DNA of 51,280 bases, from the NCBI GenBank assembly GCA_017962605.1, contig JAGCUY010000084.1, positions 1-51,280 on the forward strand, read 5' to 3'. Source of the stretch: Kiritimatiellia bacterium (lineage in GTDB: Bacteria; Verrucomicrobiota; Kiritimatiellia; RFP12; JAAYLN01). Made by a program: the position numbers and the translations under genes. Below, piece after piece: positions 5,986 through 51,280 of the stretch. Within the stretch, counting starts at the first letter, position 1. The number at the start of each line of letters is the position of its first letter. The notes below the pieces were generated by a model. It ran no database searches. It was not told the origin of the DNA and was given only the letters and a program-made list of their open reading frames with translations.

Positions 5986-6103
5986 TGCCCCCACCACCAT
6001 GGGCACAATCCCCTTCATGGTGATTCGCAAGGAGTCGTTCCTCGTGTGACGCTGGACCAGAAGGATAATTCTAGCGAGGAACAATCTAAATATCTTCATA
6101 TTT

Positions 6104-15320: not shown

Positions 15321-15350
15321 AACCGCTAGTAGTTCTAGAAGCGCTAGAAC
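15317..15350 (+). promoter_or_regulatory. Triple CTAGAAC / GTTCTAG / CTAGAAC alternating palindromes spanning the purC stop codon. They could be an intergenic stem-loop or an operator between purC and gspG.
   Basis: The sequence ctagaaccgctagtagttctagaagcgctagaac forms two alternative 7-bp stem hairpins. No T-tract follows. Confidence 0.35.
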
Positions 15351-19824: not shown

Positions 19825-21381
19825 ATGCATTCAGTGGAGACAATGCCTGAAATCGACGCCGCAACGCATACGGCGCAGGACGTTGTCTGCCCACAGTGCG
19901 GATGCCCGACCGACTCTGGCCGTTTTTGCCAACATTGCGGTGCACGGCTTGACAAGGTTGCGCCAGTCGAGAGTAGCGCGAACACGCAATGCAATAATAG
20001 AGACAATTCGCTCTATGCGACTTCATTGCCCCAAGCGCCCAATTTGTCTGAGTTTCCACAAACGCCAGAGCTGCAACAAACGCCAGAGCTGCAACAAACG
20101 CCAGAGTTGCCCAAGTTGCCTGAATTGCCAAAGTTGCAAAAGCTGCCAACGATATCGGGAATGCCCAGGCAAGGCGTAGCGACCGCACATAATCGGGCAT
20201 TCTCGCTTGAATGCAGTCTCCCTGAACGGTTTGTTGAGGGTATGACTGCGGCAGTGCTGTTTCGAATTCGTCGCGAGTGGCGCGAAGCGGAGGAAACAAC
20301 AATTTCCCTTATTGATGGCAAGCGCGTTTTGGCAGGGCCTGTAACGAGAAAGGGCATTTTAGGTCGTAAGGGCGATGAAGTCTCGCTAAACTTCCAACCA
20401 GACGTGTCAGGCGCAATTTCAGTTCTAGTCAAGATAGAGAGCCGTTTTGGCGGGATGGCTGAAAGCGAGGTTCGCACCGCGCCGCTGCTCCTGCCGGTTG
20501 AACCTGCAACCGAAGCACCGGCCCATGGGCCCGTTTCAATTAATGTCAACAATGATGGAGGAATTGTTGACTTGCAATCCAATGGTTTTGCCGCGCAGCT
20601 GGGGCTGTCAAGAGGCGACCGTCTTAACACCATTTCGAATCCGCGCATTTTCAGGCAGGTGGAAGGGATGGCCATTGTTGCGTCGCCCACGCGCCTCACA
20701 TTGGAGCATCATGGGTGTCGCCTTCATTTGATTTCTCGATCCCCTGCCTGGTTTGGCAGACAGCATGAGCGCCCTGACAAAGGGCGGACACTTGACAATG
20801 CCGCAACGCTGTGGTGCTTTACGGCAGACGGGGCGGATCCTGACGCGACTTTGTCGCAATGGATTTCCAGAACGCATTTTCTACTGGAGCGAGATGGCGC
20901 GCGATGCAGATTGCGTGACGGAGCACCGGCACGCGACAAGTCCGGGAACATTCTTTCAGGCGGGCCAATTACGGCGTCGGGTTGCGGCATAGCAGTCGAT
21001 GGAGAGGAATTGCCGCCACGCGGAGCCAAGACACTCGCATCGGGACATGAGGCTAACGTCGTGCTGGCGCCAAGAATGCGTGACGGCGGGGCGTTGTCGT
21101 TGCGCCTTCGGACTTTATTGGATTGCGCGCGCCGCGGTTGCTCGGCAGGGGCGCTGCTACGCCGCGCCGACAGTGTTCCAGAAGCATACATGGTCCTCTG
21201 GGGTGAAACCGATCTGGGAGAATTTGACGAATCCCTGCGCAATTGGACGGCGCTCTGGGATGGCGCGCGTTTTCTCGTCCGCGGGCAAGATGGCGTAGAA
21301 CATGCAATTGCGGCAGGCGACGCATTTGGGCCGATGAACGCGCCAGTATTCGTGACCCCGTTCAGGCAGATAGGCATGTGA
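19825..21381 (+). CDS. Hypothetical protein with an N-terminal zinc ribbon, a PELQQT/PKL tandem-repeat linker and a C-terminal region with a possible FHA-like segment
   Basis: The N-terminus has CPQCGCPTDSGRFCQHCGARL. Repeat nt 20050-20160 is an 18-mer x3 followed by 9-mers. The C-terminal ISRTHFLLERDGARCRLRDG...GNILSG is weakly FHA-like. Confidence 0.4.
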   Translation: MHSVETMPEIDAATHTAQDVVCPQCGCPTDSGRFCQHCGARLDKVAPVESSANTQCNNRDNSLYATSLPQAPNLSEFPQTPELQQTPELQQTPELPKLPELPKLQKLPTISGMPRQGVATAHNRAFSLECSLPERFVEGMTAAVLFRIRREWREAEETTISLIDGKRVLAGPVTRKGILGRKGDEVSLNFQPDVSGAISVLVKIESRFGGMAESEVRTAPLLLPVEPATEAPAHGPVSINVNNDGGIVDLQSNGFAAQLGLSRGDRLNTISNPRIFRQVEGMAIVASPTRLTLEHHGCRLHLISRSPAWFGRQHERPDKGRTLDNAATLWCFTADGADPDATLSQWISRTHFLLERDGARCRLRDGAPARDKSGNILSGGPITASGCGIAVDGEELPPRGAKTLASGHEANVVLAPRMRDGGALSLRLRTLLDCARRGCSAGALLRRADSVPEAYMVLWGETDLGEFDESLRNWTALWDGARFLVRGQDGVEHAIAAGDAFGPMNAPVFVTPFRQIGM

Positions 21382-23500: not shown

Positions 23501-23557
23501 GAAACTTCCAACTGTTAACCAAACTAACAAGGTCAACTAAGTCAACAAAGGAGAAAA

Positions 23558-37911: not shown

Positions 37912-40782
37912 ATGAATTCAAAACATCAAGCGTTTTTCGATTCCGACTATGCCAATCCACCTTCGATGGATTCAATACGGACTATTGGTTCCATCACTAC
38001 AGAGCATTCTACCAAATCTCTTGGCTCCGTAGATCAATACGAACTGTTGCGAAAACTTGGCGGCGGCGGTTTTGGCGTGGTGTATCTCGCGCACGACACC
38101 TCTGGCGACATAGACGTCGCCATAAAGACGCTTCACCCACTCCTAAAACGTAACACGGAGGAGATGGAAAAACTTCGGGACAAGTTCAAACTCGTCAGCA
38201 ACCTGGCACATTCGAACATCGCCTCGCCGCTCGTCCTTCTCCCTTGCCGCGAAATTGCAATCCACGACCCAGAAGCCCGCAGGGAACTTGACCTTTCCCC
38301 GGGAGATGCGGTGATGGTCATGCGCTACGCCCCTGGCGTTACGCTATCCAAGTGGCGTAAGCAGTTCACCAATGGAATAGTGCCTTTCAAAGAGGTTTGC
38401 GAAATCGGCAAACAGGTCGCCTCTGCTCTTGACTACGCACATAGGGAAGAGCACATCGTCCACCGCGACATAAAGCCCGCCAATATCATGGTCGAAACGC
38501 AGGAAGGCGGGAAAATACGCATTCGGATTCTCGACTTCGGCCTGGCGGCCGAAATCCGCGCGTCTATGTCGCGCGTGTCAATGGAGACATGCGACACTTC
38601 CGGGACGCGCCCCTACATGGCGCCAGAGCAATGGAGCGGCCGTTTTCAAAATGGGAACACGGATCAATACGCCCTCGCGTGCGTCCTGTTCGAATTGCTT
38701 TCCGGCGCCCCTCCGTTTGCCGGAGTCTTTGAAACGGGCGACCCCGCAATCATGCGCTCGGCGGTCCAATCCGAGCCGCCGCCCACGCTCCCCGGTCTTT
38801 CACCGGCGGCAAACGCCGCTTTCGCCCGCGCCCTCGCAAAATCCCCCGACGCCCGCTTCCCCTCGTGCGAAGAGTTCATAGCAGCCCTTGGGAAAGCGCT
38901 TTTCGAAGCGCCACCGTCTGGAGCAAGGCGTTTTTTCGACGCCGGGCGCTCATTCTTTGTCAACCGCAACTCCACCCGCCGCGACTCGTCTCCCACGGCA
39001 GATTCCGTCCATTCTGCCTCCACGACTAATTCAAACGCCCCCATAGACACACAGCCGCCGTCCGGGCCAGTCAAACCGCCGCGTCCCAAGTGGCTGCCGA
39101 TTGCGGCCGTCGCCGTAATCGTCCTTCTAATGTACTTCCTTTTCAGGGGAAGCGATGCTCGTCCAGTGGAAGAACCGACACCAGATGTAACTGTAAATAT
39201 GCATTCGGAGGAGAACGATAAATCATATCTCATCGAAATAGAGAAGAAAGAACGTCTCGAAAAATGGAAAGATGAAGCGAAGATCGTTTCCGAAAGCATC
39301 TCCTACTATTCAAAATGGACTGAACATCCCTACTCAAGCCGCTTTGAAAGGGCTCACGATGCGATAAAGACCATATTGGCCGCCACTACGGCGCCAACCC
39401 CGATGGCCGAGGCCGAAAAAGCCATTGAAGACTTGAGGTCTCTAAAATCATGGATGGATGAAAAATCCAAAATCCGCGAAGACTTTGAAGCCCGATGCCT
39501 CGATGTGGAAACAAAACTTGGCAAGCTTGTGAAGGACGAATACGCGGATGCTGCGGCGGACGTTATTAAAATAGCGCAAGACTCGATTGCGCAGGCAAAG
39601 GGGATTCGCGATTCCGGCGATTACGATTCGGCGCTCAAAGCACTGGCCGAGGCAAACGGACTTATGCCCCGTGCTGAAGAAAAGATTAATGATAAAAGAA
39701 GAGCCAACGAAGAAGCGCTTGCCCAATTGACCGAGATAAAGCGGGACGCCAGTGCTAAAATCCAGGGAAGCCAGAATTTGCTTGCCAGATGGAATGACAA
39801 GGCGTGGTCGGATCGCGCCGAAGCCATCAAGAGTGCCGCCACGACAATCGTCCGCAGTTCCGCCCCCGAAGATATCCCGGCTGCAAAAAAGGCGCTTGAT
39901 GCCATTTCTACTGAGGTAAAGTGGATGAATGACAATAGCGTTTCGCGTCAGACGCTCGACAATGTCGAAAAAGAGATGCGCGAACTTCTCAACGGGCTTT
40001 CGCCAACCGTCCGCAAATACGCCAACAGGGAGTTCAGCAACGCAGAAAGTCTCCGCAATGAAGCCGAAAAGCTTCGAGAGGCGGGGAAATACCCCGAATC
40101 GGCAGAGAAGAGCCGCAAGGCGAAAGAGAATTACAGTAGAGCCAAAAATATGGCTGACTATGTTGAAAAAAGGCTGACACGCATTGAAATCGCGAAAAGG
40201 GCGGGGGCGGCCGACGCAGCCGCCATGTCCTGCTATGAATGGGGGGACATGGTCTGGAAGGCTAAAAAGGACGAAGTGGAGGCGGCGGCGAAAAAACTGG
40301 CAAAATGCGCCGATGCCGACGATGCCGAAAATGCCGAAAATCTTAGAAACAACATTGGAGAAGCGCTTTCATGGGCGAAAAAGAACGACTCTGTCTGCCG
40401 GCAAATCGACGACATGCAGAAACAACTGGATGCTCTCAACAAGGAAGCTAAAAGGATCGACATAGCTGGCATTCGGCCGGTAAGCGAATCCAGCGCCATC
40501 GCTCTCTTGGAAAAATCCTCTGAAAACCGCAAGACCGGGAAATTTCCCGAAGCCAAAGCGGATTTAGAAAAGGCAATCGAGATTTTGACAAAGGCCGTTT
40601 CTGAAACAAAGGCGGAGCGGGCGGCAAGAGGGTTGAGGCTCGCGCGGGATTTCGCCAACCAAGGTAAATGGCGCGAATGCCTTGATGCTGCGAACTTCGT
40701 TATGGAGAACTGGGACTCAACAAACGCCGAGGTGCAGGCGCTTGCCAAAAAAGCCCATGAGAACCTGCATTCCCTTAAGTAA
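37912..40782 (+). CDS. Ser/Thr protein kinase with one TM and a ~550-aa C-terminal helical-repeat (coiled-coil/TPR-like) domain
   Basis: Kinase motifs are YELLRKLGGGGFGVVYLAHD, VAIKTL, HRDIKPANIMV, ILDFGLAAE and TRPYMAPEQ. The TM is WLPIAAVAVIVLLMYFLF. The C-terminal module GKWRECLDAANFVMENWDSTNAEVQALAKKA is shared with the kinase-FGE paralogs. Confidence 0.85.
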   Translation: MNSKHQAFFDSDYANPPSMDSIRTIGSITTEHSTKSLGSVDQYELLRKLGGGGFGVVYLAHDTSGDIDVAIKTLHPLLKRNTEEMEKLRDKFKLVSNLAHSNIASPLVLLPCREIAIHDPEARRELDLSPGDAVMVMRYAPGVTLSKWRKQFTNGIVPFKEVCEIGKQVASALDYAHREEHIVHRDIKPANIMVETQEGGKIRIRILDFGLAAEIRASMSRVSMETCDTSGTRPYMAPEQWSGRFQNGNTDQYALACVLFELLSGAPPFAGVFETGDPAIMRSAVQSEPPPTLPGLSPAANAAFARALAKSPDARFPSCEEFIAALGKALFEAPPSGARRFFDAGRSFFVNRNSTRRDSSPTADSVHSASTTNSNAPIDTQPPSGPVKPPRPKWLPIAAVAVIVLLMYFLFRGSDARPVEEPTPDVTVNMHSEENDKSYLIEIEKKERLEKWKDEAKIVSESISYYSKWTEHPYSSRFERAHDAIKTILAATTAPTPMAEAEKAIEDLRSLKSWMDEKSKIREDFEARCLDVETKLGKLVKDEYADAAADVIKIAQDSIAQAKGIRDSGDYDSALKALAEANGLMPRAEEKINDKRRANEEALAQLTEIKRDASAKIQGSQNLLARWNDKAWSDRAEAIKSAATTIVRSSAPEDIPAAKKALDAISTEVKWMNDNSVSRQTLDNVEKEMRELLNGLSPTVRKYANREFSNAESLRNEAEKLREAGKYPESAEKSRKAKENYSRAKNMADYVEKRLTRIEIAKRAGAADAAAMSCYEWGDMVWKAKKDEVEAAAKKLAKCADADDAENAENLRNNIGEALSWAKKNDSVCRQIDDMQKQLDALNKEAKRIDIAGIRPVSESSAIALLEKSSENRKTGKFPEAKADLEKAIEILTKAVSETKAERAARGLRLARDFANQGKWRECLDAANFVMENWDSTNAEVQALAKKAHENLHSLK

Positions 40783-40848
40783 ACATTCTTCCGCTTGCCG
40801 GTGTCGGCGGCGGTTTTCAAACAATGAACCAACAGGGTAAAACTAACA

Positions 40849-41652
40849 ATGAATAAAGTACCAATAATTGCGGTAGCCGCGATGGCCGCCGCACTTCCAC
40901 TGTGGGCGGAGGAAGTCGAACCCGCTCCAACCATCGAAGAGGGCAAGGACGATTCCAGTAAAATCGAACTCTCCGTTCGTGCCGGTGTAATCGGCGACCG
41001 CGATGCGTCTTTTATAAAAACCGGCCCTTCTCTTCAACTGGAAGCGAGATTCACTCTCTTTGACAGTTGCGTTGACCTGGTCGGCCGCGGATACTATGCG
41101 CAACCCAAAGCAAAAAAAGGGTATTCGGAAACGCTGGTCACCGATAAACCTCCCTATCAAGGCTTCCCGACAACATGGACAGATGTGGCGACCATCACGG
41201 ATAGCGAGGATGGCGATTTGCTTGGCGGCAGCGCCCAGCTACAACTGAATTTTGCGAGGAACTGCAAAGTGAATCCATATGTCGTTGCCGGCGTCGCTTA
41301 CGAAAAGGAAAAGCTGGAATGCGACATACATGAGTCGTTGGATTGGAAAGTCCGTGCGTATGGCCGGGATTGGCCTTTCCACTATGAAGAAGACAGACCC
41401 CAAAAGTGGGATGAAGACGGCACGGCGTTTGTCGGCCGCGTCGGCTGCGAATTCGACCTTTCGCCGTTCTGGTTTGTCGCGGAAGGCTCATACATGACCA
41501 AACTCTACGACTCCGAGGACAAAGGGCAGTTCGAGTTGGCGGGCCGCGCCGGCTTCCAGTGGACGAAGTCCTGCCGCATCGACGCCGGCATCGACTACTA
41601 CACCGAGTGGGAGCAGTTCTTCGTTGGCTTAGGCCTCACGCTCTGCCTGTAG
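40849..41652 (+). CDS. Putative outer-membrane beta-barrel protein
   Basis: The signal peptide is MNKVPIIAVAAMAAALPLWA. Alternating amphipathic strands end with an aromatic-rich C-terminal strand. Confidence 0.45.
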   Translation: MNKVPIIAVAAMAAALPLWAEEVEPAPTIEEGKDDSSKIELSVRAGVIGDRDASFIKTGPSLQLEARFTLFDSCVDLVGRGYYAQPKAKKGYSETLVTDKPPYQGFPTTWTDVATITDSEDGDLLGGSAQLQLNFARNCKVNPYVVAGVAYEKEKLECDIHESLDWKVRAYGRDWPFHYEEDRPQKWDEDGTAFVGRVGCEFDLSPFWFVAEGSYMTKLYDSEDKGQFELAGRAGFQWTKSCRIDAGIDYYTEWEQFFVGLGLTLCL

Positions 41653-41723
41653 AAGTTTTTTGAAGCACCCATGCGCGGCGCCGGGATCGCGCCGCGCATG
41701 ATCTAATTGAATGCAAGGGCGTT

Positions 41724-44185
41724 ATGGACATTGGCGACAATTCTCTTGGCAGCGCAGCAACCATGGCCGAAGGCAACGCCGCAGTCCAGTTTATGCCTTA
41801 TGACGAGCCGTCGCTCGGCTCCGCGCCAACGCTACCTGGCGGCGCAGGGCGGCGGCCCAATCGCCCCGCGCCCGGAGACGACCTTCTTGGGCGCTATACG
41901 GTTCTCGAAGAACTGGGCCAGGGCGGCATGGGTGTGGTTTACAAGTGCCTCGACCGCGAAGGCGGCATCGAGGTCGCCATCAAGTGCCTTCCACCCGAAG
42001 TGACGCGGATCCGGGACGAACTGGAGGAGATTCGGGAAAACTACCAGATAGTCGCCCGCCTTCACCACTCGTCGATTTCCGGTCTGCGCTACTTGGAGCG
42101 CGATTCGGCGAGCGGCGACTACTACGTGGTGATGGACCTCGCGGAAGGCGAGGATCTTTCGCGCATCCTACGCCGCCGGCGCGGGAGGCCAATGCCGCTC
42201 CATGAGGCTTTGGACATCCTGCGCCCCGTTGCCGCAGCGCTTGACTACGCGCATGGGGAAGGCGTCCTGCACCGCGACGTTAAGCCGGCGAACGTGAAAG
42301 TTGAGGCGCTAGGTTGGGAATCTCGCGCAGAGACGCAGAGACGCAGAGACGCAGAGAAGGTGGGGCGAGCTCTCCGAGCGAGCCGCGCAAAAAGGGCGGT
42401 AGAGGCTGGCTTGTAGCGGCACTGCTGGCGCTCGTCGTTGGCGGAGGCATTTGGTTTGCCGTGGGAAATAATGGCGAGCCGCAACTGGGAGGGGCAACGT
42501 CCACGTTGCCCGCTCCGCCGGCTGTCGAAGCGCCCACCGCCTCGCCCACCACCCCGGCCAGCCCGGAAGTCCCGCCACACCAGGCGGGGCCGTCTGCCGC
42601 ACCTGTGGCAGCGGTTCCGCAGAACAAGCCAGAGCCGGCGCCAGTCGCATCTGCTCCTGTCCTCCCCGCCGCACCGGCGGATGATGCCCCGCTTGGCGAT
42701 TGGGAGGATTACCTCCTATCGCTCAAGGAGCGGCGCCAGTCGCTTTTGGACGAGGGCTATCCTGAAAACGGCGAACAGGTCAAGGCAGTCGCCGCGGCGA
42801 TTGCAGTCGCGGACGAACGCATCGCCGCTATGACGGCGAGCATTGAGGAAATCGAGCGCAATGCCCGCGTCGCCAAGGCGCACAAGGACGCCGAACGCGC
42901 CTCCAACCGCTCCCGCATCGCCGAGATCAAACGAAATGTCGGGCGCAAGGTCGCCTCCGCCGCGAAATACGCTGGCGTCGATGACAAGCTTTTCGTGGGA
43001 CGGCGTAAGACCATTGCCGACGCCACGAACCAGCTGGAGAGGATTTCCGACCCCGACGAAATCGAAACCGTGAAGAGACTCCGCATCGATATCGACGACG
43101 CCGTGGACTGGATTCTCCGCAACGGCCCCGCGCGGGAGGGGATCGTCTCGCAGGAGGAGGAACTCAAGGCACTGGGGCCAGAGTTGGAGCGCGTTGGCGC
43201 GGCCAGGCTGGCGGCGCAGTCATTCAACGCCGCGAGGCGCCAGGAGCGCGAAAGCGCCAGTTTGCGGGACAAGGCCGACTACGAAGGCGCCGCCGGGGGC
43301 TATCGGCAGGCGAAGGCCCTCTACGAAAAGGCCATCGCGGAGGCGAAAACGGCACAGGCTGAAGCGTGCGTGGTGCGCGCGGAGTGCCTGAAAACATCTG
43401 GCCTTTGGGAGGATTGCCTCAAGGCCGCCGACGAGGCGCTTGAATGGGATGCCGGCAACGCGAAGGCGCAGACGCTGAAACAGGAGGCGCAGAATGCCAT
43501 CGACGCCGAGCGCAAGGCGAAGGAAGAGGCCGAGCGAAAGAAACGCGAGGCCGAGGAGGCGGCGAGGCGGGATCTGGAGGCAAAGGCCGCAGCCGAGAAG
43601 GCGGAACGCGAACGGCAGGAGCGTGAGCGCCAGGAGTCCGAGCGCAGGAAGCGCGAGACTGAAGAGGCTGCGCGGACACCAAGGGCGGGAGACCTCAAGG
43701 CCGTTGCTGTAGGCTCGCAGACGATCCGCCTTCACTGGTGCCCCGCCGGGTCGTTCATGATGGGTAGCCCGTCAACCGAGAAGGACTGCGGCAGCGACGA
43801 AACGCCACAGCATCTCGTGACTCTGACGCAAGGCTTCTGGATGGGCGAAACTGAGGTGACGCAAGGGTTGTGGGAGGAGGTCTTGGGGAACAATCCAGCC
43901 AATTTTAAGTCCGGCGACGACTACCCCGTGGAGCGCGTCTCATGGGAGGACTGCCAGGAGTTCATGAAGAAATTGAACGCCCGTTTTCCGCAATCCGGCC
44001 TCCGTTGGGCGTTGCCGACCGAGGCGCAATGGGAATACGCCTGCCGAGCTGGGACAACCGGCTCCTACAGCGGTTCGGGGCGTCTCGATGACATTGGGTG
44101 GTATGATGGAAATAGCGGGAGCAAGACTCATCCGGTGAAGCAGAAGCAGCCGAACGCCTGGGGACTTTTACTTCTTTGCACTTGA
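41724..44185 (+). pseudogene. Degenerate paralog of the Ser/Thr-kinase–TM–coiled-coil–FGE-sulfatase-domain family. It is frameshifted inside an octamer tandem repeat, lacks the kinase C-lobe, and its FGE domain is truncated where a DUF4143 ATPase cassette follows.
   Basis: Frame 0 (41724..42416) encodes the kinase N-lobe through HRDVKPANVKVE. After the (cgcagaga)x4 tract the homologous reading (GGASSPSEP...) continues in frame 2 (the 42314..44185 ORF). The C-terminus ends at PVKQKQPNAWGLLLLCT*, whereas the intact paralog continues GLYDMHGNVWEW.... Confidence 0.6.
42326..42357 (+). repeat. (cgcagaga)x4 octamer tandem repeat at the frameshift site of the degenerate kinase paralog. It is followed by the conserved core ggtggggcgagctctccgagcgagccgc (42359-42386).
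   Basis: The repeat and core were read directly. The intact paralog has 3 copies of the analogous cacagaga at 46312-46335, followed by a homologous core (46339-46364). Confidence 0.8.
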
Positions 44186-44336
44186 GAAAGGGTGCGCGAG
44201 AGATTCGTGCGTGAGCCTTTTCCTTTGGATTCTTGCCGAACGCGACGGCGGCAGCTTTCCCATTCTCGCCGATAAGATTTCCGCACCATAGTCTAGTGTG
44301 TTTGCGTAGCAGTTCGCTCCACCTATTTGGATATGC

Positions 44337-44424
44337 CAAAATCAAGTTTACTAGATTTTGGTAGGCACCAAAATCGAACTGCCTCGATTTTGGTATTGAC
44401 AAAAACGTCCATTTTTTGTAGTAT
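44337..44424 (+). promoter_or_regulatory. Array of four alternating CCAAAATC / GATTTTGG half-sites, including a 9-bp-stem hairpin gattttggtaggcaccaaaatc. The last half-site abuts a consensus sigma70 promoter (-35 TTGACA 44396-44401, 17-nt spacer, -10 TAGTAT 44419-44424) for the DUF4143 ATPase gene.
   Basis: The motifs were read directly. The region is AT-richer than its flanks. Confidence 0.5.
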
Positions 44425-44433
44425 GGCCTCACC

Positions 44434-45639
44434 ATGAAACGTGTTTACGAATCGATGCTGCGCGAGCATTTCGCATCGAACAGGCAGATGGCCTTTGTCT
44501 CAGGTCCACGACAGGTGGGCAAGACTTCCCTCGCCGAGAGCGTCCTGCCTAATGCGACGCTCCTGAACTACGACAACCAGTCGCATGCCCGGATCATCGC
44601 CGCCGGGCCCGAGCGCGTCGCCGAATTCGCCGACCTTGCAAATCCATTGAAGTTGGCCCAGGGCATTGTCTTCGACGAATTGCACAAGTTTCCAAAATGG
44701 AAGGGCCTTTTGAAAGGCTTCTTTGACGTTCACGGGAAGGGCTTGAAAGTGGTCGTGACCGGGAGCGCGCGCCTCGACATCTACAAGCGCGGGGGCGACA
44801 GCCTCATGGGGCGCTACTTCCCTTTCCGCATCCACCCGCTTGGCATAGGCGAACTCGAAGGGGGAGACTTGGACACGGAGGGCTTTTTACGAAAGCCAGG
44901 GAAGCCATCGCGTGAAGCCCTCGACCAACTCCTGCAACTAGGCGGATTCCCAGAGCCGTTTTTAAAAGGGAATGCCCGTTTCCGCAACCAATGGAACCGC
45001 ACCCGGCTGGAAAGACTATTCCGTGAGGACATTCGCGATTTTAGCAGGGTGCAAGACATTATCGGCATCCGCTCGCTGGCGTCTCTTGTCGCGTCGCGGG
45101 TTTGCGGGGGTGTGAACTACGCCGCAATGGCATCGGATCTTTCCGTGGCTCCGGACACGGCGAAGTCCTGGCTTGGAATACTCGAATCGGTCTATTACTC
45201 CTATTCCATCACCCCGTGGTTCAGGAATGTCGCCAATTCCATCAGGAAACAGCCAAAGGTCTATTTGTGGGACTGGAGCGCTTTGCCAGATGGCGGCGCG
45301 AAGAATGAGAACTTCATCGCCTCGCAGTTGCTGAAGGCGGTTCACTGGTGGACTGACACCGGACTTGGCGATTTTTCATTGCACTATTTGCGCGACAAGA
45401 CTGGCCGGGAGGTCGATTTCGTTATTGCGCGGGATGGTGTTCCATTCATGCTTGTCGAATGCAAGTCGTCGATGAAGGAAACGTTGAGCCGGACACTGGA
45501 GGAGGTGCAGCGGCAGATGGCGGTCAAATACGCCTTCCAAGTTGGAATGGACGGCGAGTCATCTGACCTCAACCCCTTTGACTACGAGGGGATGGCCATA
45601 AAAGTTTCCGCATTGGATCTCCTGAAAATGCTGATCTAA
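44434..45639 (+). CDS. AAA+ ATPase of the AAA_14/DUF4143 family with a C-terminal PD-(D/E)xK-like motif
   Basis: The N-terminus is MKRVYESMLREHF...VSGPRQVGKTSL (Walker A). The C-terminal D...EVDFVIARDGVPFMLVECKSS follows the restriction-endonuclease-like D/ExK pattern. Confidence 0.8.
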   Translation: MKRVYESMLREHFASNRQMAFVSGPRQVGKTSLAESVLPNATLLNYDNQSHARIIAAGPERVAEFADLANPLKLAQGIVFDELHKFPKWKGLLKGFFDVHGKGLKVVVTGSARLDIYKRGGDSLMGRYFPFRIHPLGIGELEGGDLDTEGFLRKPGKPSREALDQLLQLGGFPEPFLKGNARFRNQWNRTRLERLFREDIRDFSRVQDIIGIRSLASLVASRVCGGVNYAAMASDLSVAPDTAKSWLGILESVYYSYSITPWFRNVANSIRKQPKVYLWDWSALPDGGAKNENFIASQLLKAVHWWTDTGLGDFSLHYLRDKTGREVDFVIARDGVPFMLVECKSSMKETLSRTLEEVQRQMAVKYAFQVGMDGESSDLNPFDYEGMAIKVSALDLLKMLI

Positions 45640-45697
45640 CCGATGGCTTGCCTCCTACCGCTCCAGACAGGAATCTGATAGAATAAAAGCCAGCCGC

Positions 45698-47779
45698 ATG
45701 GACTATGACGAAAACTCCTTGAACTCTGCACCGACGATGGTCGGTGGCCTCAATGGTAGGGCGCGCTCGCCGAGCGCGCCGCAGGGCAACGCTTCCCTTG
45801 GCTCCGCGCCGACGATGCGCGGGCGCACGACGCCGCGCGGGGAACGCCTGCGCGTCGGCGACTCGCTTCTTGGCCGCTACACCGTGCTTGCCGAGTTGGG
45901 CGAGGGCGGCATGGGGGTCGTTTACAAGTGCCTCGACACCGTCGGCGGCATCGAGGTCGCAATCAAGTGTCTGCCGCCGGAACTCTCGCGCAACGAGTCG
46001 GAGATGGAGGGCATCCGGGAGAACTACGCCATCGTGGCGCGCCTCCATCATTCGGCGATATCCGGCCTGCGGAATCTGGAGAAGGACCCCGACTTCGGCG
46101 AATACTACCTTGTGATGGATCTTGCCCAAGGCGAGGACCTATCCACGATCTTGCGCCGCCGGCGCGGCACGCCGATGGCGCTCGGCGAGGCGCTGGACAT
46201 TTTGCGTCCGCTTGCCTCGGCGCTCGACTACGCCCATGGCGAAAGAGTCCTGCACCGCGACGTCAAGCCTGCGAACGTGAAGGTGGAGACGCTGGTCGCC
46301 GGAAAATCTCACACAGAGACACAGAGACACAAAGAAGGCGGGGCGACTTCTTCGAGCGAGCCGCATGTTCAGCTGCTTGACTTCGGGCTGGCGGCGGAGG
46401 TGCGGTCGTCGATGTCGCGCATGTCGCTGCGCGGCCACGCGGGTTCGAGTGGAACTCCGGCCTACATGGCGCCTGAGCAGTGGGAGGCGAAGCGGCAGAG
46501 CGCGGCGACGGATCAGTATTCGCTGGCGGTGATGGCCTACCAGATGCTCGCGGGCTACCTTCCCTTCGACGCCGATGACATGGCGCTGCTGAAGGACGCG
46601 GTGCTGACGCGCCCGCCGGAGGAGATCGAAGGCGTTCCCGCGCACGTGAACGCGGCGCTGATGCGGGCGCTCGCGAAGAACCCGAAGGAGAGGTTTGCAA
46701 GTTGCGCGGAGTTCGTGAAGTTTCTGCAAAAAAGAGAAACGATATCTCCGAAGCCTCCGCAGGATCAGCCTGATGGAATGGCGGACGATGAAGATTATGT
46801 TGAACTACAGGAGATGGCTGGAGGCGCGCTTCAAAAAGCGGAAAAAATAAGAAGGTATCTTGCCAAACCGCATCCTCTTCCCCCTCGTCGCGGCGCCTGG
46901 CTATGGTGGGGAGCGGCATTAGTGGCTATTGTTTTTGCACACAAATCCATTTCACGCATTTATTGGTCATGGGTCAATGCTCGTCACGCCGTTGAGCAAG
47001 CGAAAGCAGAATGGCAGAAGATGGCACACAAGACCGGCGAGAGCAAGGTCGTTTGCGTCGGTTCGCAGGAGATCGCGCTTCGCTGGTGTCCAGCTACGAC
47101 GAGTGAAGACTGGAAGAGAATTTCTGGCGGTAAAGACTTCTTTATGATGGGGTCGCCATCCTCCGAAGAGGGACGAGACAACGATGAGACGCAACACCGT
47201 GTGACACTCACGAAGGGCTTTTGGATGGGCGAGACCGAGGTGACGCAGGGTTTGTGGAAATATGTCATGGGGTCGAATCCTTCATATTTCAAGTCTGGTG
47301 ACGACTATCCAGTCGAGCAAGTCTCATGGTACGACTGCCAGGAGTTCCTGAAGAAGCTGAATGCCCGCTCTCCACAATCCGGCCTCCGCTGGGATCTGCC
47401 CACCGAGGCGCAATGGGAATACGCCTGCCGGGCCGGAACAACCGGTATGTATGGCGGCTCGGGGCACCTTGACGACATGGGCTGGTATGATGGGAACAGC
47501 GGGAACAAACCCCGCCCTGTAAAGCAGAAACGACCTAATGACTGGGGCCTCTACGATATGCACGGCAATGTCTGGGAGTGGTGCCAGGATCGGCATGGGA
47601 ACTATCCGTCTGATGCCGTGACCGACCCAACCAGCGCCGCATCTGGCGACTGCATCCTACGAGGCGGCAGCTGTTGGTTCGCCTCTCGGATCTGCCGCTC
47701 GGCAAACCGTTACGGGCACGACCCTAGCCCCTGCGGCTGGGACGATGGCTTCCGCGTCGCCTTGGTTTCGGCTGATTAG
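45698..47779 (+). CDS. Ser/Thr protein kinase – TM – FGE-sulfatase (formylglycine-generating-enzyme-like) domain fusion, the intact paralog
   Basis: Kinase motifs are LGEGGMGVVYKCLD, VAIKCLPPE, HRDVKPANVKVE, LLDFGLAAE and TPAYMAPEQ. The TM is AWLWWGAALVAIVF. The FGE domain runs RWCPATTS...GFWMGETEVTQGLW...GLYDMHGNVWEWCQD...RGGSCWFASRICRSANRYG. Confidence 0.85.
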   Translation: MDYDENSLNSAPTMVGGLNGRARSPSAPQGNASLGSAPTMRGRTTPRGERLRVGDSLLGRYTVLAELGEGGMGVVYKCLDTVGGIEVAIKCLPPELSRNESEMEGIRENYAIVARLHHSAISGLRNLEKDPDFGEYYLVMDLAQGEDLSTILRRRRGTPMALGEALDILRPLASALDYAHGERVLHRDVKPANVKVETLVAGKSHTETQRHKEGGATSSSEPHVQLLDFGLAAEVRSSMSRMSLRGHAGSSGTPAYMAPEQWEAKRQSAATDQYSLAVMAYQMLAGYLPFDADDMALLKDAVLTRPPEEIEGVPAHVNAALMRALAKNPKERFASCAEFVKFLQKRETISPKPPQDQPDGMADDEDYVELQEMAGGALQKAEKIRRYLAKPHPLPPRRGAWLWWGAALVAIVFAHKSISRIYWSWVNARHAVEQAKAEWQKMAHKTGESKVVCVGSQEIALRWCPATTSEDWKRISGGKDFFMMGSPSSEEGRDNDETQHRVTLTKGFWMGETEVTQGLWKYVMGSNPSYFKSGDDYPVEQVSWYDCQEFLKKLNARSPQSGLRWDLPTEAQWEYACRAGTTGMYGGSGHLDDMGWYDGNSGNKPRPVKQKRPNDWGLYDMHGNVWEWCQDRHGNYPSDAVTDPTSAASGDCILRGGSCWFASRICRSANRYGHDPSPCGWDDGFRVALVSAD

Positions 47780-47998
47780 CGAGGTCCCGCACCATTTCAC
47801 GAATTGTGATAAATTTTCAGCAACCAAGGTTTTGGAAACGACACTTGCTGAAAAAGTTTTTTCTAAGCAAAGGCATAAGAAAATCGGAGTGTTTCCTATA
47901 CACCTCCCTACATGGCCACGTTCCTGGCGAACGCGAAGTTGAGCGATGTTTTTTGAAGTTTGAATCAAGAAGGGCTCCTGTCGTCTCTTTTGATAATC

Positions 47999-48007
47999 TG
48001 CTATAAT
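47999..48007 (+). promoter_or_regulatory. Extended -10 element TGcTATAAT, 9 nt upstream of an orphan kinase-family start codon (48017)
   Basis: The element was read directly. Confidence 0.35.
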
Positions 48008-48016
48008 ACATGCCCC

Positions 48017-48116
48017 ATGGACCTTGACGAAAACTCCTTGAACTCAATGCCGACAGCCGCCGATGGGACGAGGTGGTCGTTGGCATTGAGTTAAGCGATT
48101 GTTCGTCGTAGTTCAT
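48017..48116. pseudogene. Two head-to-head 5' fragments of kinase-FGE family genes forming a ~100-nt imperfect palindrome. The plus fragment encodes MDLDENSLNSMPTA and the minus fragment MNYDEQSLNSMPTT; both stop after ~25-30 codons.
   Basis: Compare the starts of the full-length paralogs: MDYDENSLNSAPTM (45698) and MDIGDNSLGSAATM (41724). The plus strand reads ATGGACCTTGACGAAAACTCCTTGAACTCAATGCCGACA and the reverse strand ATGAACTACGACGAACAATCGCTTAACTCAATGCCAACG. They face each other across an ~18-nt centre. Confidence 0.55.
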
Positions 48117-48187
48117 GTGGCTATTGTTCTAGCAGAAAGAGAACAAGGATGTGGAAAGAGAAAAGACTCCACGGCTTGCGGCAGCAC

Positions 48188-49360
48188 CTATAGGGCACCG
48201 CTGATGAACTCGACATAATTGTCGCGTGAAACGCATCGCCATTTCGCTTCTGGATAGGAGTCGGCAAATATCTTCGGGCATTTGGCCTTGGCCGCCTTGA
48301 CGGGATTCCATTTGAACTCGTAGGCGGCAAGCCCTTGGTCGGATGATTCCTCAAGGTAGTCTATCTCGTTGGCGCCGTTCCCCTTTGTCCGCCAGAAGAA
48401 CGACTGGACATCACGCTCGGCCAGTTGGTTGCGCTTGATGCGTTCAGCAATAAGATAGTTCTCGAAAAGATGCCCTGTGTCCTCGCGGGCGTCAAGGGGC
48501 AGGTAGTTCCCAATCAGCGCGTTCCTGATGCCTGTGTCGCAAAAGTAGATTTTCCGAGCCTTCTTCAACTCGTTCCGCGCATTTCTCGAATACGCCGGGA
48601 GCCGGAACACGACAAAGGCCTTTTCCAGACGTTCGACATAGGACTCCACAGTCTCGTTGTCCATGCCGATCAAGTCGCCAACCTCTTTATATGAAACTTC
48701 GTTCCCGACCTGCAGGGATAGTGCCTTTGCCAGTTTTCCAAGTTTGTCCGAATTTTGCAGGTTCTTCCACTTGAGGACATCCTTGAAGAGATATGCCGAA
48801 CAAAGATTCTTAAGGACGCGTCGCCGCGCTGTGTCGGAAGGCGCCGTCGCCACGTCAGGGTAGGTGCCATAAAGGAGCCTGGTTTCAAGCATGTTCCTTT
48901 CGGAAACGGCACTCGTCAAACGGGCCAGTTCGGCAAAGGACAGCGTTGGCAAGACATATTGCTCCAAGCGGCCCGTCAGGGGTTCTCCAACTTCTTCCGA
49001 AAGCTCGAATGATGATGAGCCGGTCGCTACGATGCGAATGTCCTTCAAGCGGTCATGGATGATTTTCAAAACCAGGCCAATGTCGCTGATCTTCTGGGCC
49101 TCATCGACAAAAAGCGTCTTTGCCTCACCCATGATGGAGCGAGCCTTTTCGGGGGTCATGGTTTCGTATGCGAGCAGAGATCGTTCAGCAAGGACGTCTC
49201 CGGAAAGCACGGCAACGCCATCCTTCCTGATGGATTCGGCATCGAGGAGGTGTTCCACGAGAGTCGTTTTCCCCGTCTGGCGCGAACCATACAGGATTAC
49301 AACCTTCCGGCCTTGCAGCGCCTCTGCAAGCGCTCTTTCCAAATCTCTTTGCACATACAT
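48188..49360 (-). CDS. AAA+ ATPase of the AAA_14/DUF4143 family, third paralog
   Basis: Start was chosen at ATG (revcomp of 49358-49360), giving MYVQRDLERALAEALQGRKVVILYGSRQTGKTTLVEHLL; the ORF track extends to a TTG at 49381. The C-terminal GANEIDYLEE...AAYEFKWN is PD-(D/E)xK-like. Confidence 0.75.
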   Translation of the reverse strand: MYVQRDLERALAEALQGRKVVILYGSRQTGKTTLVEHLLDAESIRKDGVAVLSGDVLAERSLLAYETMTPEKARSIMGEAKTLFVDEAQKISDIGLVLKIIHDRLKDIRIVATGSSSFELSEEVGEPLTGRLEQYVLPTLSFAELARLTSAVSERNMLETRLLYGTYPDVATAPSDTARRRVLKNLCSAYLFKDVLKWKNLQNSDKLGKLAKALSLQVGNEVSYKEVGDLIGMDNETVESYVERLEKAFVVFRLPAYSRNARNELKKARKIYFCDTGIRNALIGNYLPLDAREDTGHLFENYLIAERIKRNQLAERDVQSFFWRTKGNGANEIDYLEESSDQGLAAYEFKWNPVKAAKAKCPKIFADSYPEAKWRCVSRDNYVEFISGAL

Positions 49361-49380
49361 GGGGAAAAACCTTTGACACA

Positions 49381-49433
49381 ATTATACATCAAACTTTTTG
49401 CGACTGCAACCGCAAAAAGTTGAAACTTTTTGC
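49381..49433 (-). promoter_or_regulatory. Minus-strand sigma70 promoter (-35 TTGCAG = revcomp of 49404-49409; -10 TATAAT = revcomp of 49381-49386; 17-nt spacer). A GCAAAAAG/CTTTTTGC hairpin (49412-49433) precedes it, and a third half-site copy (49394-49401) lies in the spacer.
   Basis: The motifs were read directly. The hairpin + direct half-site + promoter architecture matches that at 44337-44424, though the sequences differ. Confidence 0.45.
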
Positions 49434-49458
49434 GGAAAACCATACGGCCGGATGCCAT

Positions 49459-51280
49459 TTATTGAACTGGAACCAAAGCAACGCGGACGCCCAGATTGTC
49501 GAGGCGGTAGCCGGGATCGAGCCCAAGCCGGGAGGCCGAACGGCAGCCGCGGGCGTCGTAGTACCACGAGCCCCCGCGGAACACGCGGAGCGAGCCGGAC
49601 GACAGCCCGGTCGGATCAGTCACGGTGCCGGACGGATATTTGCCATACCAGTCCTGACACCACTCACAAACATTGCCGTGCATATCGTAAAGGCCCCAGG
49701 CGTTCGCCTCATAGCTGCGCACCGGTGTCGTTTTTTGCTTGTAAGTTCCCTTACGCGTTGTCCCGCAGGGGTAATTGCCGTCGCAGTTCGCCTTGTCGCC
49801 ATTCAAGGCATTCCCCCAGAAATAGGCCGTCTGACTACCAGCCCGGCAGGCGTATTCCCATTGCGCCTCAGTCGGCAGCGCCCAGCAGAGACCAGATTGC
49901 GAGGATTGTGCGTTTATTTTCTTAAGGAACTCCTGGCAGTCGTTCCAGGAGACATTCTCCACGGGGCGCTGCGCAGAGGTCTTCCCGCCAAATCCAAGAA
50001 ACTTCCCGTCGAGGAAGTTTGATGGATTGTTTCCCATGACCTCCTCCCACAATCCCTGCGTGACCGGCGTCTCACCAAGCCAAAAACCATTTGTCAATAT
50101 GACTTCATGCAGCCGTTCATCTATATCTATATCTCGTCCCTCTTCGTCATCTGGACTGCCCATCAAAAAGAAGTCATGTCCTCCGGAAATCTTCTTCCAG
50201 GCAACGCTTGTCGTCGCAGGACACCAGCGGAAGTTCATTGAAACGCCCGGAGCGATTGTCACACTCTTTAATTCACCTGGCCTAGGGTCATTGGCATGGC
50301 GCTGCTCTTCTTCCTTTGTCTTTCGTGCCGCTTCCCTTCGCTCCGTTTCTTCCTTTGCCTTGCGCTCCGCTTCCTCGCGCGCTTTACGTTCCGCTTCTTC
50401 CTTTGCTTTGCGCTCCGCTTCTTCTCTGGCCTTGCGCGCAGCCTCTTCGCGAGCCTTGCGTTCTGTCTCCTCACGTACCCGCCTGGCTTTCTTCAAATCG
50501 CCCAGCGCAGATTCGGCGGCATTGAGGCTTTCTGCGGCGGCGGCGAAGCGGCCAAACTTGCAGGCCTCTTCGGCTATCGCAAGTTCGTCCTCGCCCTTGA
50601 CGACAAACTTAGCGAATTCCTTGTCCGTGCGGTCTTCAGCGGGAATCGCCTTAATTGCTTTTGTCAGCGCCAACTTGCGTCGCAGGACATCGGCCTCGGA
50701 AATGGCCGAAGACTGCGGCTCGCCCGGAGGACTCGCCCTACCATCCTGTCTCTGCGCCCTCTGCGCCTCTGCGTTAAAAGCCCTTTGCGGACTTTGCGGA
50801 CTTTGCGCAAGACAACTTTCCACAAACTCTGCACAACTTGCAAACCTCTCCTTCGGGTTCTTCGCAAGCGCCTTTTGCAACGCCGCGTTCACATGTGCAG
50901 GAATGTCCTCAATCTCTTCTGGTGCGTCGCGCTCAATCGCCGTCCGCATGATAATCGGATCGCCGGTCTCAAAAACACCGGAGAAGGGCGGCGCGCCGGA
51001 TAGCATTTCATAGGCGACGCAGGCAAGCGCATACTGGTCGGTGCGGCCGTCCTGCTTGCGGCCCAGCCACTGCTCAGGCGCCATGTAGGGCCGTGTGCCT
51101 GAAGTGTCGCCAGTCTCCGTCGAGATGCGCGACATCGACGAGCGTATCTCCGCGGCAAGGCCGAAGTCGAGAATACGCACGCGGATTTTGGAAGTGGCTA
51201 GTGCGAAGTGGTTAGTGGTTAGTTGCGGCTCGCCCGGAGAGCTCGCCCCACCATCACCTTTCAACTTTTCAACTCTCAAC
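49459..51280 (-). CDS. Ser/Thr protein kinase – coiled-coil – FGE-sulfatase domain fusion paralog, 5'-partial; the N-terminus lies beyond the window end
   Basis: The kinase C-lobe is ILDFGLAAEIRSSMSRISTETGDTSGTRPYMAPEQ. There is an EAERKAREE octapeptide repeat region. The complete FGE domain is present (GFWLGETPVTQGLW...GLYDMHGNVCEWCQD...RGGSWYYDARGCRSASR). Confidence 0.8.
   Translation of the reverse strand, partial: LRVEKLKGDGGASSPGEPQLTTNHFALATSKIRVRILDFGLAAEIRSSMSRISTETGDTSGTRPYMAPEQWLGRKQDGRTDQYALACVAYEMLSGAPPFSGVFETGDPIIMRTAIERDAPEEIEDIPAHVNAALQKALAKNPKERFASCAEFVESCLAQSPQSPQRAFNAEAQRAQRQDGRASPPGEPQSSAISEADVLRRKLALTKAIKAIPAEDRTDKEFAKFVVKGEDELAIAEEACKFGRFAAAAESLNAAESALGDLKKARRVREETERKAREEAARKAREEAERKAKEEAERKAREEAERKAKEETERREAARKTKEEEQRHANDPRPGELKSVTIAPGVSMNFRWCPATTSVAWKKISGGHDFFLMGSPDDEEGRDIDIDERLHEVILTNGFWLGETPVTQGLWEEVMGNNPSNFLDGKFLGFGGKTSAQRPVENVSWNDCQEFLKKINAQSSQSGLCWALPTEAQWEYACRAGSQTAYFWGNALNGDKANCDGNYPCGTTRKGTYKQKTTPVRSYEANAWGLYDMHGNVCEWCQDWYGKYPSGTVTDPTGLSSGSLRVFRGGSWYYDARGCRSASRLGLDPGYRLDNLGVRVALVPVQ
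50296..50485 (-). repeat. Imperfect 24-nt tandem repeat (~8 copies) encoding (E-E-A-E-R-K-A-R/K)n in the coiled-coil region of the minus-strand kinase-FGE gene
   Basis: Period 24 is visible as ...gcgcgctttacgttccgcttcttc / ctttgctttgcgctccgcttcttc / tctggccttgcgcgcagcctcttc / gcgagccttgcgttctgtctcctc. Confidence 0.7.
50714..50810 (-). repeat. Second internal copy of the core+SSR element in the minus-strand kinase-FGE gene. The core (50714-50743) is flanked by ctctgcgcc-type and ctttgcgga-type short tandem repeats (50744-50810).
   Basis: The coding strand reads gcgcaaagtccgcaaagtccgcaaaggg...cgcagaggcgcagagggcgcagagacagg + atggtagggcgagtcctccgggcgagccgca. It encodes QSPQSPQ...AQRAQRQDGRASPPGEPQ. 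Confidence 0.7.
51224..51280 (-). repeat. Third copy of the core+SSR element in the same gene, sitting between the kinase catalytic loop and the DFG motif. The core (51224-51252) is followed by ytttcaac octamer repeats that run to the window end.
   Basis: The coding strand reads gttgagagttgaaaagttgaaag + gtgatggtggggcgagctctccgggcgagccgcaacta. It encodes KLKGDGGASSPGEPQ. Confidence 0.7.

Follow-up and report, generated by a model that had tools for sequence, protein, structure and literature searches.

The contig JAGCUY010000084.1 of a Kiritimatiellia bacterium, analysed here over positions 1-51,280 (the window, to whose full stretch all coordinates refer), carries a 27-nt core that recurs inside a family of paralogous Ser/Thr kinase genes, next to short tandem arrays. 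This core most probably represents a GTAG/GTGG-tagged family of repetitive extragenic palindromes (REPs) of the Planctomycetes-Verrucomicrobia-Chlamydiae (PVC) bacteria, caught inside open reading frames (ORFs) beside tandem-array elements that are independent of it. The original prediction saw here a small DNA module, mobile or recombinogenic and compatible with being translated, and this proposal is supported, in that the element is multi-copy, mostly extragenic and covarying, flanks genes for a REP-associated tyrosine transposase (RAYT), and is read in frame in unrelated proteins. The support for mobility comes from related PVC genomes; in the window itself all five copies belong to one gene family, and it contains no transposase gene.

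The host genes encode paralogous Ser/Thr kinases fused to a transmembrane (TM) segment, a coiled coil and an FGE-sulfatase domain (Pfam). Loci used for comparison are labelled L001-L246 and kinase homologues by P-numbers (e.g. P0064); among the former, L121 is a contig from another European Nucleotide Archive (ENA) analysis. The paralogues are as follows.

41724..42416, + strand: gene A, upstream ORF; kinase N-lobe to catalytic loop, then the array and the REP, the latter out of frame (VGRALRASR) and 30 nt ahead of a stop codon
42314..44185, + strand: downstream ORF of gene A, in the other frame; encodes GGASSPSEP, a TM helix, a coiled coil and a truncated FGE-sulfatase domain
45698..47779, + strand: gene B; intact Ser/Thr kinase, TM helix, FGE-sulfatase; two REPs and one array
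49459..51280, - strand: gene C; kinase, coiled coil, FGE-sulfatase; 5' end beyond the window (824 aa in L121)
L121 1-3466: gene D, the fourth paralogue

Anatomy and covariation of the core

A search with the pattern GGGCGAGYYCTYCGRGCGAGCCGC, allowing up to three mismatches, returned five matches in the window as against none in 100 dinucleotide-preserving shuffles. Four of them (42363-42386, +; 46341-46364, +, one mismatch; 50715-50738, -; 51225-51248, -) stand at the places where cores had been predicted, and the fifth, with three mismatches, lies at 45759-45782 (+). What had been described as two GGGCGAGC direct repeats is better read as the two arms of an imperfect palindrome. The layout is GT[AG]G, GGC-GA-GCTC, TCC, GAGC-GA-GCC, G, in which GCGAGC pairs with GCGAGC via a tandem G·A/A·G mismatch; the complete REP of 27 nt comprises a 4-nt tag, a 9-bp stem (GGC, the tandem G·A/A·G and four variable paired positions), a YCC loop and a 3' G. 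Its copies in the window are listed below.

42359..42385, + strand: copy A, GGTG-GGC-GA-GCTC-TCC-GAGC-GA-GCC-G; among the commonest exact variants in PVC genomes
46337..46363, + strand: copy B, decayed; tag GGCG instead of GGTG, inner stem with a C-C mismatch and a T·G wobble; GGATSSSEP
51226..51252, - strand: copy C1, GGASSPGEP; placed in the beta7-beta8 turn; stem with one T·G wobble
50716..50742, - strand: copy C2, GGTA-GGC-GA-GTCC-TCC-GGGC-GA-GCC-G; GRASPPGEP; in the linker after the kinase domain
45755..45781, + strand: fifth REP, GGTA-GGCGCGCTC-GCC-GAGCGCGCC-G (in full, GGTAGGGCGCGCTCGCCGAGCGCGCCG); perfect 9-bp stem; GRARSPSAP; in the N-terminal tail of gene B

The tag GGTG/GGTA precedes four of these five copies, the decayed copy B being the exception. 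All are intragenic and occur as singletons or as direct pairs about 500 nt apart, with no inverted doublet of the REPIN type among them. Four of the five are read through in frame, and the frame used yields a peptide rich in Gly, Ser and Pro. The motif that the core had been said to encode in frame, G-G-A-S-S-P-G/S-E-P, is read in this way in genes B and C; the kinase frame of gene A reads VGRALRASR instead, and GGASSPSEP belongs there to the frame of the downstream ORF. Three cores do lie, as proposed, between the HRD...N catalytic loop and the DFG motif of the kinase/FGE paralogues. The fourth, which had been assigned to a coiled-coil region, is indeed outside the HRD-DFG site, but it occupies the linker between kinase domain and coiled coil.

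Comparison of sequence variants argues strongly that the core is an imperfect palindrome kept by compensatory change. Sister variants exchange the four inner pairs (GCTC/GAGC, GCCC/GGGC, GGCG/CGCC, GCCG/CGGC, GCAC/GTGC, CACA/TGTG), and in some the G·A pairs are swapped for G-C or C-G. Within the loci listed in a core scan, for which a loosened core was searched in one genome per bacterial species (at least 118 loci among the matches listed), 52 distinct variants retain the 9-bp stem with altered inner pairs. Since these variants were collected by a pattern that fixes the three outer pairs, only the inner six are informative, and it is with this limit that the following values are to be read: the covariation score was 0.325 as against 0.072 in shuffles, none of 500 of which reached it; double-sided changes numbered 62 versus 13.6 in shuffles; and sliding the partner columns lowered pairing from 79% to 19-48%.

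The REP family in other PVC genomes

If the core were a feature of these paralogues only, it should be absent elsewhere; it is instead multi-copy in many PVC genomes. Among the matches listed, the GT[AG] tag is present on 100 of 127, and the tagged matches lie nearly all in metagenome-assembled genomes (MAGs) of Kiritimatiellae, Victivallales/Lentisphaerae and Verrucomicrobiota, often on several contigs per genome (RUG14821, BS750m-G19 and the CAZWPN Victivallales MAG). The 27 untagged matches (Actinomycetota, Burkholderiales and others) look like chance occurrences inside genes. An inverted partner within 150 nt accompanies 31 of the 100 tagged copies, and a direct neighbour 25. Most PVC copies are intergenic or close to an ORF end, a convincing position within a gene being limited to about 8-10%, proportions that derive from crude ORF and GC-position rules and are noisy in GC-rich genomes; this predominantly extragenic location is not that of the window copies.

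Searching the loci for an HUH…Y motif led to two ORFs bracketed by REPs. In L062 (Verrucomicrobia UBA5540) the ORF lies between a REP at 1631 (+) and an inverted one at 2130 (-), while in L082 (Lentisphaerae RUG572) REP clusters lie on both sides. NCBIfam model NF047646, 'REP-associated tyrosine transposase', scores the L062 ORF at 80.1 bits (cut-off 80) and the L082 ORF at 65.7 bits; with Pfam Y1_Tnp the former reaches 27.1 bits, above the cut-off, and the latter 13 bits only, although the L082 ORF also matches PDB 4ER8 (E. coli TnpA-REP) at E 1.4e-5. Such REP-flanked RAYT genes were found in related genomes (L062, L082) only. Tag, mismatched stem, doublets and flanked transposase are the defining features of GTAG-type REPs, and the core is therefore assigned to the REPs of RAYT type; the family would be a substrate-type repeat of these transposases (RAYT, TnpA-REP).

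The consensus REP contains a stop codon in no frame, and the GTAG form in one. Because the ORF and GC-position classification is noisy, in-frame copies elsewhere were taken solely from Pfam-verified cases; these, and copies in the antisense frame, are the following.

L063: in-frame REP inside the catalytic domain of an alanyl-tRNA synthetase (Pfam-verified)
L085: two in-frame REPs in tandem, threonine synthase, between the PALP and C-terminal domains (Pfam-verified)
L103: in-frame REP in an RHS protein (Pfam-verified)
L014, L113: in-frame REP after an SNase domain (Pfam-verified)
L094: antisense-frame REP, GT9 glycosyltransferase, GSLGELAPP (Pfam-verified)
L091: antisense-frame REP in a 962-aa ORF without family assignment

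In a frame other than that of the kinases, AARPEDSPH is also read inside a protein. These readings bear on the possibility that G-G-A-S-S-P-x-E-P is an ordinary conserved kinase peptide, for example a regulatory or phosphorylated loop, and that the DNA similarity reflects descent. One and the same frame does yield the peptide in genes B and C, as does the downstream frame in gene A, and the peptide stands at orthologous positions in kinases of other genomes. However, the 27 nt are mostly extragenic, on both strands, in inverted pairs and around transposase genes; they are read in other frames in other proteins (GSLGELAPP in the GT9 enzyme, AARPEDSPH); SSPSEP and SRPGEP correspond to GCTC/GAGC and GCCG/CGGC, a change that is compensatory at the DNA level; and 77 of 118 homologues have no insert at all. 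We regard a protein motif as scarcely credible.

The kind of element is known. GTAG REP families have been reported in the PVC superphylum, and no known genome is richer in intragenic GTAG REPs than that of Opitutus terrae (Di Nocera et al. 2013, PMC3733652). The tag there is often GTGG, one of the intragenic copies lies in a Ser/Thr kinase, the families are designated GTAG-17 to -20 with the listed peptides GTGVPPV, HGRDARAT and VAGVADP, and intragenic REPs are an accepted minority state of a REP family (PMC3733652). With the GTAG REP/RAYT systems in general (REP/BIME of E. coli, 4ER8; REPINs of Pseudomonas; O. terrae) the present family shares the 5' GT[AG]G tag, the imperfect palindrome with a mismatched 9-bp stem, many copies per genome, inverted doublets, clusters, a single flanked HUH transposase gene and some intragenic copies. 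It differs from the O. terrae REPs in the stem-loop (GGC-GA-NNNN-TCC-NNNN-GA-GCC), in the peptide GGASSPSEP and in its hosts, which are Kiritimatiellae, Lentisphaerae and uncultured Verrucomicrobiota. Since the peptides differ from the O. terrae list, this is another family of a known kind, and the REP family itself, its setting in a kinase loop and the octamer frameshift polymorphism described below are the new details.

A likeness of function exists with the palindromic elements of Rickettsia, which are also small palindromes lying in frame in many unrelated genes, at surface positions of apparently functional proteins. The RPE-1 element is much longer, about 100-150 nt, and is not known to be associated with a RAYT. 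The present element, at 27 nt, with a different sequence, PVC hosts and membership of the GTAG-REP class, does not belong to the Rickettsia elements, and the resemblance is confined to in-frame tolerance. The Rickettsia elements, too, are discussed in PMC3733652.

Several observations weigh against the assignment, in addition to the collecting pattern mentioned above. No RAYT gene and no extragenic REP copy was found in the 51-kb window, in which all five copies fall within one paralogous gene family; in the DNA available from this organism (51 kb plus about 6 kb from L121) the roughly seven REP copies are all in kinase genes. The window thus departs in both respects from GTAG REP/RAYT systems, and duplication with gene conversion could explain the spread of the REP in this genome without transposition. 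When folded as single-stranded DNA (ssDNA), the four cores gave z-scores of -0.30 to +0.64, no better than shuffles, and composites of array and core did no better; the 45755 variant (-12.9 kcal/mol, z -2.65) is the sole window copy beyond shuffles. The claim that the cores form hairpins, for which folding had been suggested as a check, accordingly rests on compensatory covariation, because single-sequence energies are ordinary in four of the five copies. Between genes A and B, finally, core identity (24/28) is not distinguishable from that of the flanking N-lobe (75%). Extra conservation of the core between these two genes was for this reason rejected.

In several rumen PVC MAGs the REP forms part of a larger recurring mosaic element: at L030, L046, L066, L077, L084, L098, L108 and L119 it is followed by a conserved segment of about 40 nt, AATTCCCCAAAAACCACGTTCCGCACCATAATCTCAC, and then by paired inverted GAGACGA/GTCTCAC heptamer arrays.

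Tandem arrays and the kinase loop

Each core had been said to adjoin a different 7-9-nt tandem array, and the arrays were confirmed by Tandem Repeats Finder (TRF). They are listed here with the modules to which they belong.

42326-42357: CGCAGAGA x4.0, period 8, 100% matches (TRF)
42320..42358, + strand: gene A module; leader ATCTCGC, then four octamers (GCAGAGAC x3, GCAGAGAA)
46311-46335: ACACAGAG x3.1 (TRF)
46306..46336, + strand: gene B module; leader ATCTCAC, then three octamers (ACAGAGAC x2, ACAAAGAA), 24 nt, in frame
50750-50773: CTCTGCGCC x2.8 (TRF)
50783-50807: CTTTGCGGA x2.8 (TRF)
50750..50807, - strand: two gene C arrays upstream of REP C2, CGCAAAGTC x2.8 and GCGCAGAGG x2.8
51259-51274: TTTCAACT x2, running off the window end (TRF)
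51253..51280, - strand: gene C array upstream of REP C1; GTTGAAAR, about four units, continuing past the window end
51207-51223 (7-nt period) and 51191-51217 (14-nt period): downstream of the last core (TRF); absent from the original prediction
51191..51223, - strand: gene C array just downstream of REP C1; CTAACCA CTAACCA CTTCGCA CTAGCCA, read as LTTNHFALAT

Array and core were considered as one element, a view that we rejected: in PVC loci, 7-9-nt arrays within 150 nt of a REP amount to about 13-16%, as against a chance expectation of about 7% estimated from REP density, and in the metagenome loci a REP is nearby in only 1 of the 128 arrays among the matches listed. The weak enrichment may reflect only a shared non-coding location. 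The arrays are a second, independent, cross-phylum class of interspersed element, separate from the REP. In the octamer type, about three RCAGAGNN units come after the leader ATCTCAC, and at other loci the type forms hairpins with tandem-octamer arms; the leader, as ATCTC[AG]C, is conserved before the octamers in genes A and B and in L125, L076 and L077. A metagenome scan for the leader plus two octamer units yielded at least 120 loci among the matches listed (L127-L246), with a G+C content of 0.30-0.76. Within these matches, three units per arm are the mode (87 of 128 arrays) and a strict inverted partner is present in 34 of the 128. Other unit types in PVC genomes (GAGACGA, CTCGTCA, CACAAAGA, GAGTGTGT) likewise occur as inverted array pairs, sometimes within the spacer of a REP doublet. 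Since array types recur at unrelated loci and in unrelated phyla, the arrays are not purely local products.

Some of the metagenome array pairs enclose longer cargo rather than a short loop, and in 5 of the 128 arrays a small ORF of GxxExxY type lies directly downstream, an association that is suggestive only. The heptamer array in copA (2199-2254, +; ORF 1787-4198), for which a relation to the core elements had been raised, belongs to the array class and not with the core: AAGTCGA is repeated 7.7 times, an effective 21-nt period keeps the frame, and the encoded QVESQKSKVESQRSKVESQ, located after the heavy-metal-binding domain and before the first TM helix, is of a peptide type that the kinase inserts of P0021 and P0023 also contain.

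A literature search for the array sequences found no description of them. The nearest analogues are the short tandemly repeated repetitive (STRR) sequences of cyanobacteria, interspersed heptamer arrays accompanied by small dispersed repeats; they resemble the present arrays in their several types, their location between and inside genes and the company of small mobile hairpin repeats, while differing in unit sequence and phylum, and the arrays described here have a conserved ATCTCAC leader and commonly form inverted pairs elsewhere. The bacterial interspersed mosaic elements (BIMEs) of E. coli, which are extragenic, combine REPs with short conserved motifs in varying order. Mosaic order is alike in both cases, but the BIME linker motifs are not tandem arrays, whereas here arrays are present and the composites are intragenic.

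The kinase genes show where such composites are accommodated. Across 118 homologues the HRD-DFG spacer measures 11-12 aa in 77, 16-19 aa in 16 and 23-61 aa in 25, and the long spacers are mosaics of REP peptides (GGASSPGEP, GGASRPGEP and decayed forms) and array peptides (SHTEAQRHRE, VESRKSESQKS, LVTRHSSLVT); HKEGGATSSSEPHVQ is an example of a peptide spanning the insert. In an AlphaFold2 model of the gene B kinase domain (mean pLDDT 91, pTM 0.89), the 22-aa insert is the sole long low-confidence coil, between strands 140-143 and 169-172; these strands are read as beta7 and beta8, and the insert as a disordered beta7-beta8 turn. Sites that tolerate extra residues accommodate the REPs: this turn, the N-terminal tail, and the linker that follows the kinase domain. 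The kinase at 37912, which had been called unrelated and free of an insertion, is not unrelated: its C-lobe closely resembles that of gene C. Its HRD-DFG spacer is 16 aa long as against 12 aa in canonical relatives. A PEP-CTERM-like sorting signal (…SEP followed by a TM helix) was considered as well and set aside, as arrangement and position do not fit.

Comparison across genomes points to an insert that is old in this lineage and has been repeatedly rebuilt. Gene C and the kinases of L124 (P0064) share 66% identity over 450 aa and carry REPs at the same two positions, but with different stems, GCTC/GGGC and GTCC/GGGC in the window and GCCG/CGGC at both sites in the L124 genome; to the left of the first REP the two genomes have segments of unrelated sequence; and a distant homologue, L125, has kept the leader and three octamers (the in-frame state) with only the first 8 nt of the REP. 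We draw the conclusion of age and rebuilding from these three observations, the shared sites with different variants, the unrelated left segment and the partial copy in L125. At the place after the C1 site, the L123 and L124 kinases have analogous CTCGTCA arrays. The fifth REP, at 45755, is without a counterpart in gene A, where the corresponding tail region shows no REP-like sequence in the alignment with gene B; its GRARSPSAP variant type recurs in the homologous kinases P0008, P0017, P0037 and P0039. About 40 nt past the window end, in gene C (L121 5625-5655), lies a palindrome of 15+15 nt, GTCGAGACGCTTCCG-T-CGGAAGCGTCTCGAC. Its left arm is made of the kinase's own V-E-T-L-P codons, so that the insert starts with an inverted copy of flanking coding sequence (…VETLPSEASRP…), and the peptide LP[AS]EAS[QR]PS is also present in homologues P0019, P0021, P0023, P0049 and P0050.

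These data can also be read as the relics of one ancient REP insertion, homogenised by gene conversion and with nothing mobile now, in which the arrays arose by slippage of GAGACGC (V-E-T) codons. All window copies being in one gene family, the decay of copy B, the gene-conversion tract between genes C and D (see below), the resemblance of the kinase codons GAGACGC to the array unit and the gene C palindrome on those very codons are in keeping with such an origin. Against this, array types with the same leader and units are found at unrelated loci and in unrelated phyla, the 45755 REP has no counterpart in the N-terminal tail of gene A, and each genome carries its own intact REP variant at orthologous sites despite a protein identity of about 66%, which argues for turnover or constraint over passive inheritance. 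Descent from one fossil insertion is in our judgement distinctly improbable, and the assignment to a REP family with members in many PVC genomes is preferred.

Frame shifts, gene conversion and origin

Both gene A and gene B illustrate how the octamer arrays affect the reading frame. Gene A (41724-44185) is split exactly at its array: the upstream ORF covers positions 1-129 only of the Pfam Pkinase profile, the entire kinase C-lobe is missing, and the four units place the sequence out of frame, removal of one in silico (leaving three) giving an ORF of 817 aa. Recombination between REPs was considered as the cause of the C-lobe loss; the C-lobe of gene C does lie between two REPs in direct orientation, but no homologue with a sense REP just before the TM segment was found, and this cause stays conjectural. 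Gene B has three units in the window, L001, L002 and L122 and two in L121, while gene A has four in all five assemblies. Compared with the window, L001, L002 and L122 show 1-3 substitutions and no indels, and L121 shows, over 11.8 kb, no substitution and a single 8-nt gap, the loss of one CACAGAGA unit from gene B. The two-unit gene B of L121 is frameshifted and called as ORFs of 224 aa and 455 aa. This is one case of unit-number change, and the assemblies compared may not be independent samples, a further point that counts against the interpretation offered here.

The difference might be an artefact in which short-read assemblers collapsed or expanded the repeats. Contigs of several independent assemblies end within array/REP composites, including the gene C array at 51253..51280, which indicates that assemblers struggle there. 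The gene B array, at 24 nt, is however far shorter than a read and is spanned by k=141 contigs, and the remaining 11.8 kb are identical; an artefact would in any case touch the polymorphism only and not the nature of the element. We hold it to be very unlikely.

The paralogues also exchange sequence. Gene D carries an array-REP-array composite nearly identical to that of gene C (window 50858-51280): identity is 98% in the initial 100 nt and about 65% in the ~600 nt aligned after that, falling off roughly 300 nt into the alignment. This pattern indicates a gene-conversion tract between C and D that ends in the kinase C-lobe. Gene D contains an in-frame TAA inside its array. Taken together, the array/REP composites are shown to be a mutational hot spot.

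L122 differs from the window at only three positions in 13.8 kb, all A/T transversions (41309, 44654, 45965), of which two or more fall where gene calls are split or shortened (an AAA_14 gene; gene B, with a call of 591 aa). Either further inactivating variants or sequencing errors may underlie them.

The frameshifts invite comparison with the contingency loci formed by simple sequence repeats, such as the tetranucleotide repeats of Haemophilus and the CTCTT repeats of Neisseria opa genes. The likeness lies in an intragenic repeat whose unit is not a multiple of three, a frame shift upon a one-unit change and a pair of alleles one unit apart; the present arrays differ in having 2-4 units and in deriving their octamer from an interspersed element. 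Octamer arrays acting as programmed phase-variation switches for the kinase paralogues would vary the repertoire of membrane kinase/FGE sensors, with the REP as a passenger. The 8-nt unit, the three units of gene B in four assemblies versus two in the fifth with no other difference over 11.8 kb, the position of gene A exactly one unit out of frame, and the in-frame three units of the distant homologue L125 are consistent with this. Yet the 2-4 units are far below those of classical contingency loci, the polymorphism is single and of uncertain assembly independence, and most arrays at the kinase site in homologues have 7- or 9-nt units in frame-keeping multiples. The lesions, moreover, look like decay: gene A is without its C-lobe and has a truncated FGE domain, gene D has a nonsense codon, and L122 has nonsense substitutions elsewhere in the cluster. 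Decay of redundant paralogues fits the few units and the lesions in A, D and L122 at least as well as switching, and programmed phase variation appears unlikely.

The scheme that we favour, a REP family with intragenic members beside independent arrays, would have begun with the entry of an array-REP composite into the ancestor of this kinase lineage, followed by its remodelling in three ways: slippage with strand mispairing within the arrays, conversion among the paralogous genes, and exchange with the REP pool of the genome. The loss of the gene A kinase C-lobe would be a deletion that started at the REP, and the frameshifts would represent mutational decay or switching of redundant paralogues rather than a proven regulatory device. 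A more far-reaching version, which we consider doubtful, joins two proposals: the octamer arrays would be arms of an undescribed element with hairpins or terminal inverted repeats, captured halves of which act as frameshift switches, and the intragenic REPs would be members of a live pool. For the REP part of this joint reading, itself of low probability, intragenic copies would be replaced or homogenised via RAYT-linked conversion, or selected for a hairpin in mRNA or ssDNA.

The kinase/FGE genes of the window alternate with AAA_14/DUF4143 ATPase genes (37912-51280), and an alternation with AAA_14/DUF4143 or ATPase_2-type ATPases is also seen in L121, L124 and L125, a recurrence across three or more genomes that suggests a conserved module of two genes. 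Elsewhere in the window, a scan at Rfam 15 gathering thresholds over its whole length returned no known RNA family, and G+C falls to 0.49 at 4001-6000, as against 0.62-0.69 on both sides, around the ORF at 4471-5712, a region that may be a recently acquired gene. Further arrays lie at 20058-20149 (an 18-mer x2.9, then GCCAAAGTT x5.6), 17932-18046 (AACGGAAAC-type, Asn/Gly-rich), 23526-23550 (AACAAAGTC x2.8), 40313-40341 (ATGCCGAAA x3.2) and 15317-15349 (CTAGAAGCG x3.7); several of them share the motif AAAGT[CT] with the gene C arrays.

For the study of these bacteria, the peptides G[GR]ASSPSEP, GGASRPGEP and GRARSPSAP, and the antisense readings GSLGELAPP and RLARRARPT, mark REP DNA and not a protein motif in MAGs of Kiritimatiellota, Lentisphaerota and Verrucomicrobiota, and REP/array elements break short-read assemblies. 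The kinases offer a clear example of how the catalytic domain of an enzyme can take in REPs and array elements at a permissive loop, with module turnover across species, and in at least one case a change of one 8-nt unit inactivates a gene. Were the intragenic REPs indeed members of a live pool, this could explain why each species has its own perfectly paired variant at orthologous kinase sites, and, with the arrays as switches, the family would provide a tractable case for asking whether a transposase still acts on intragenic REPs and whether interspersed arrays serve as a source of phase-variation switches.

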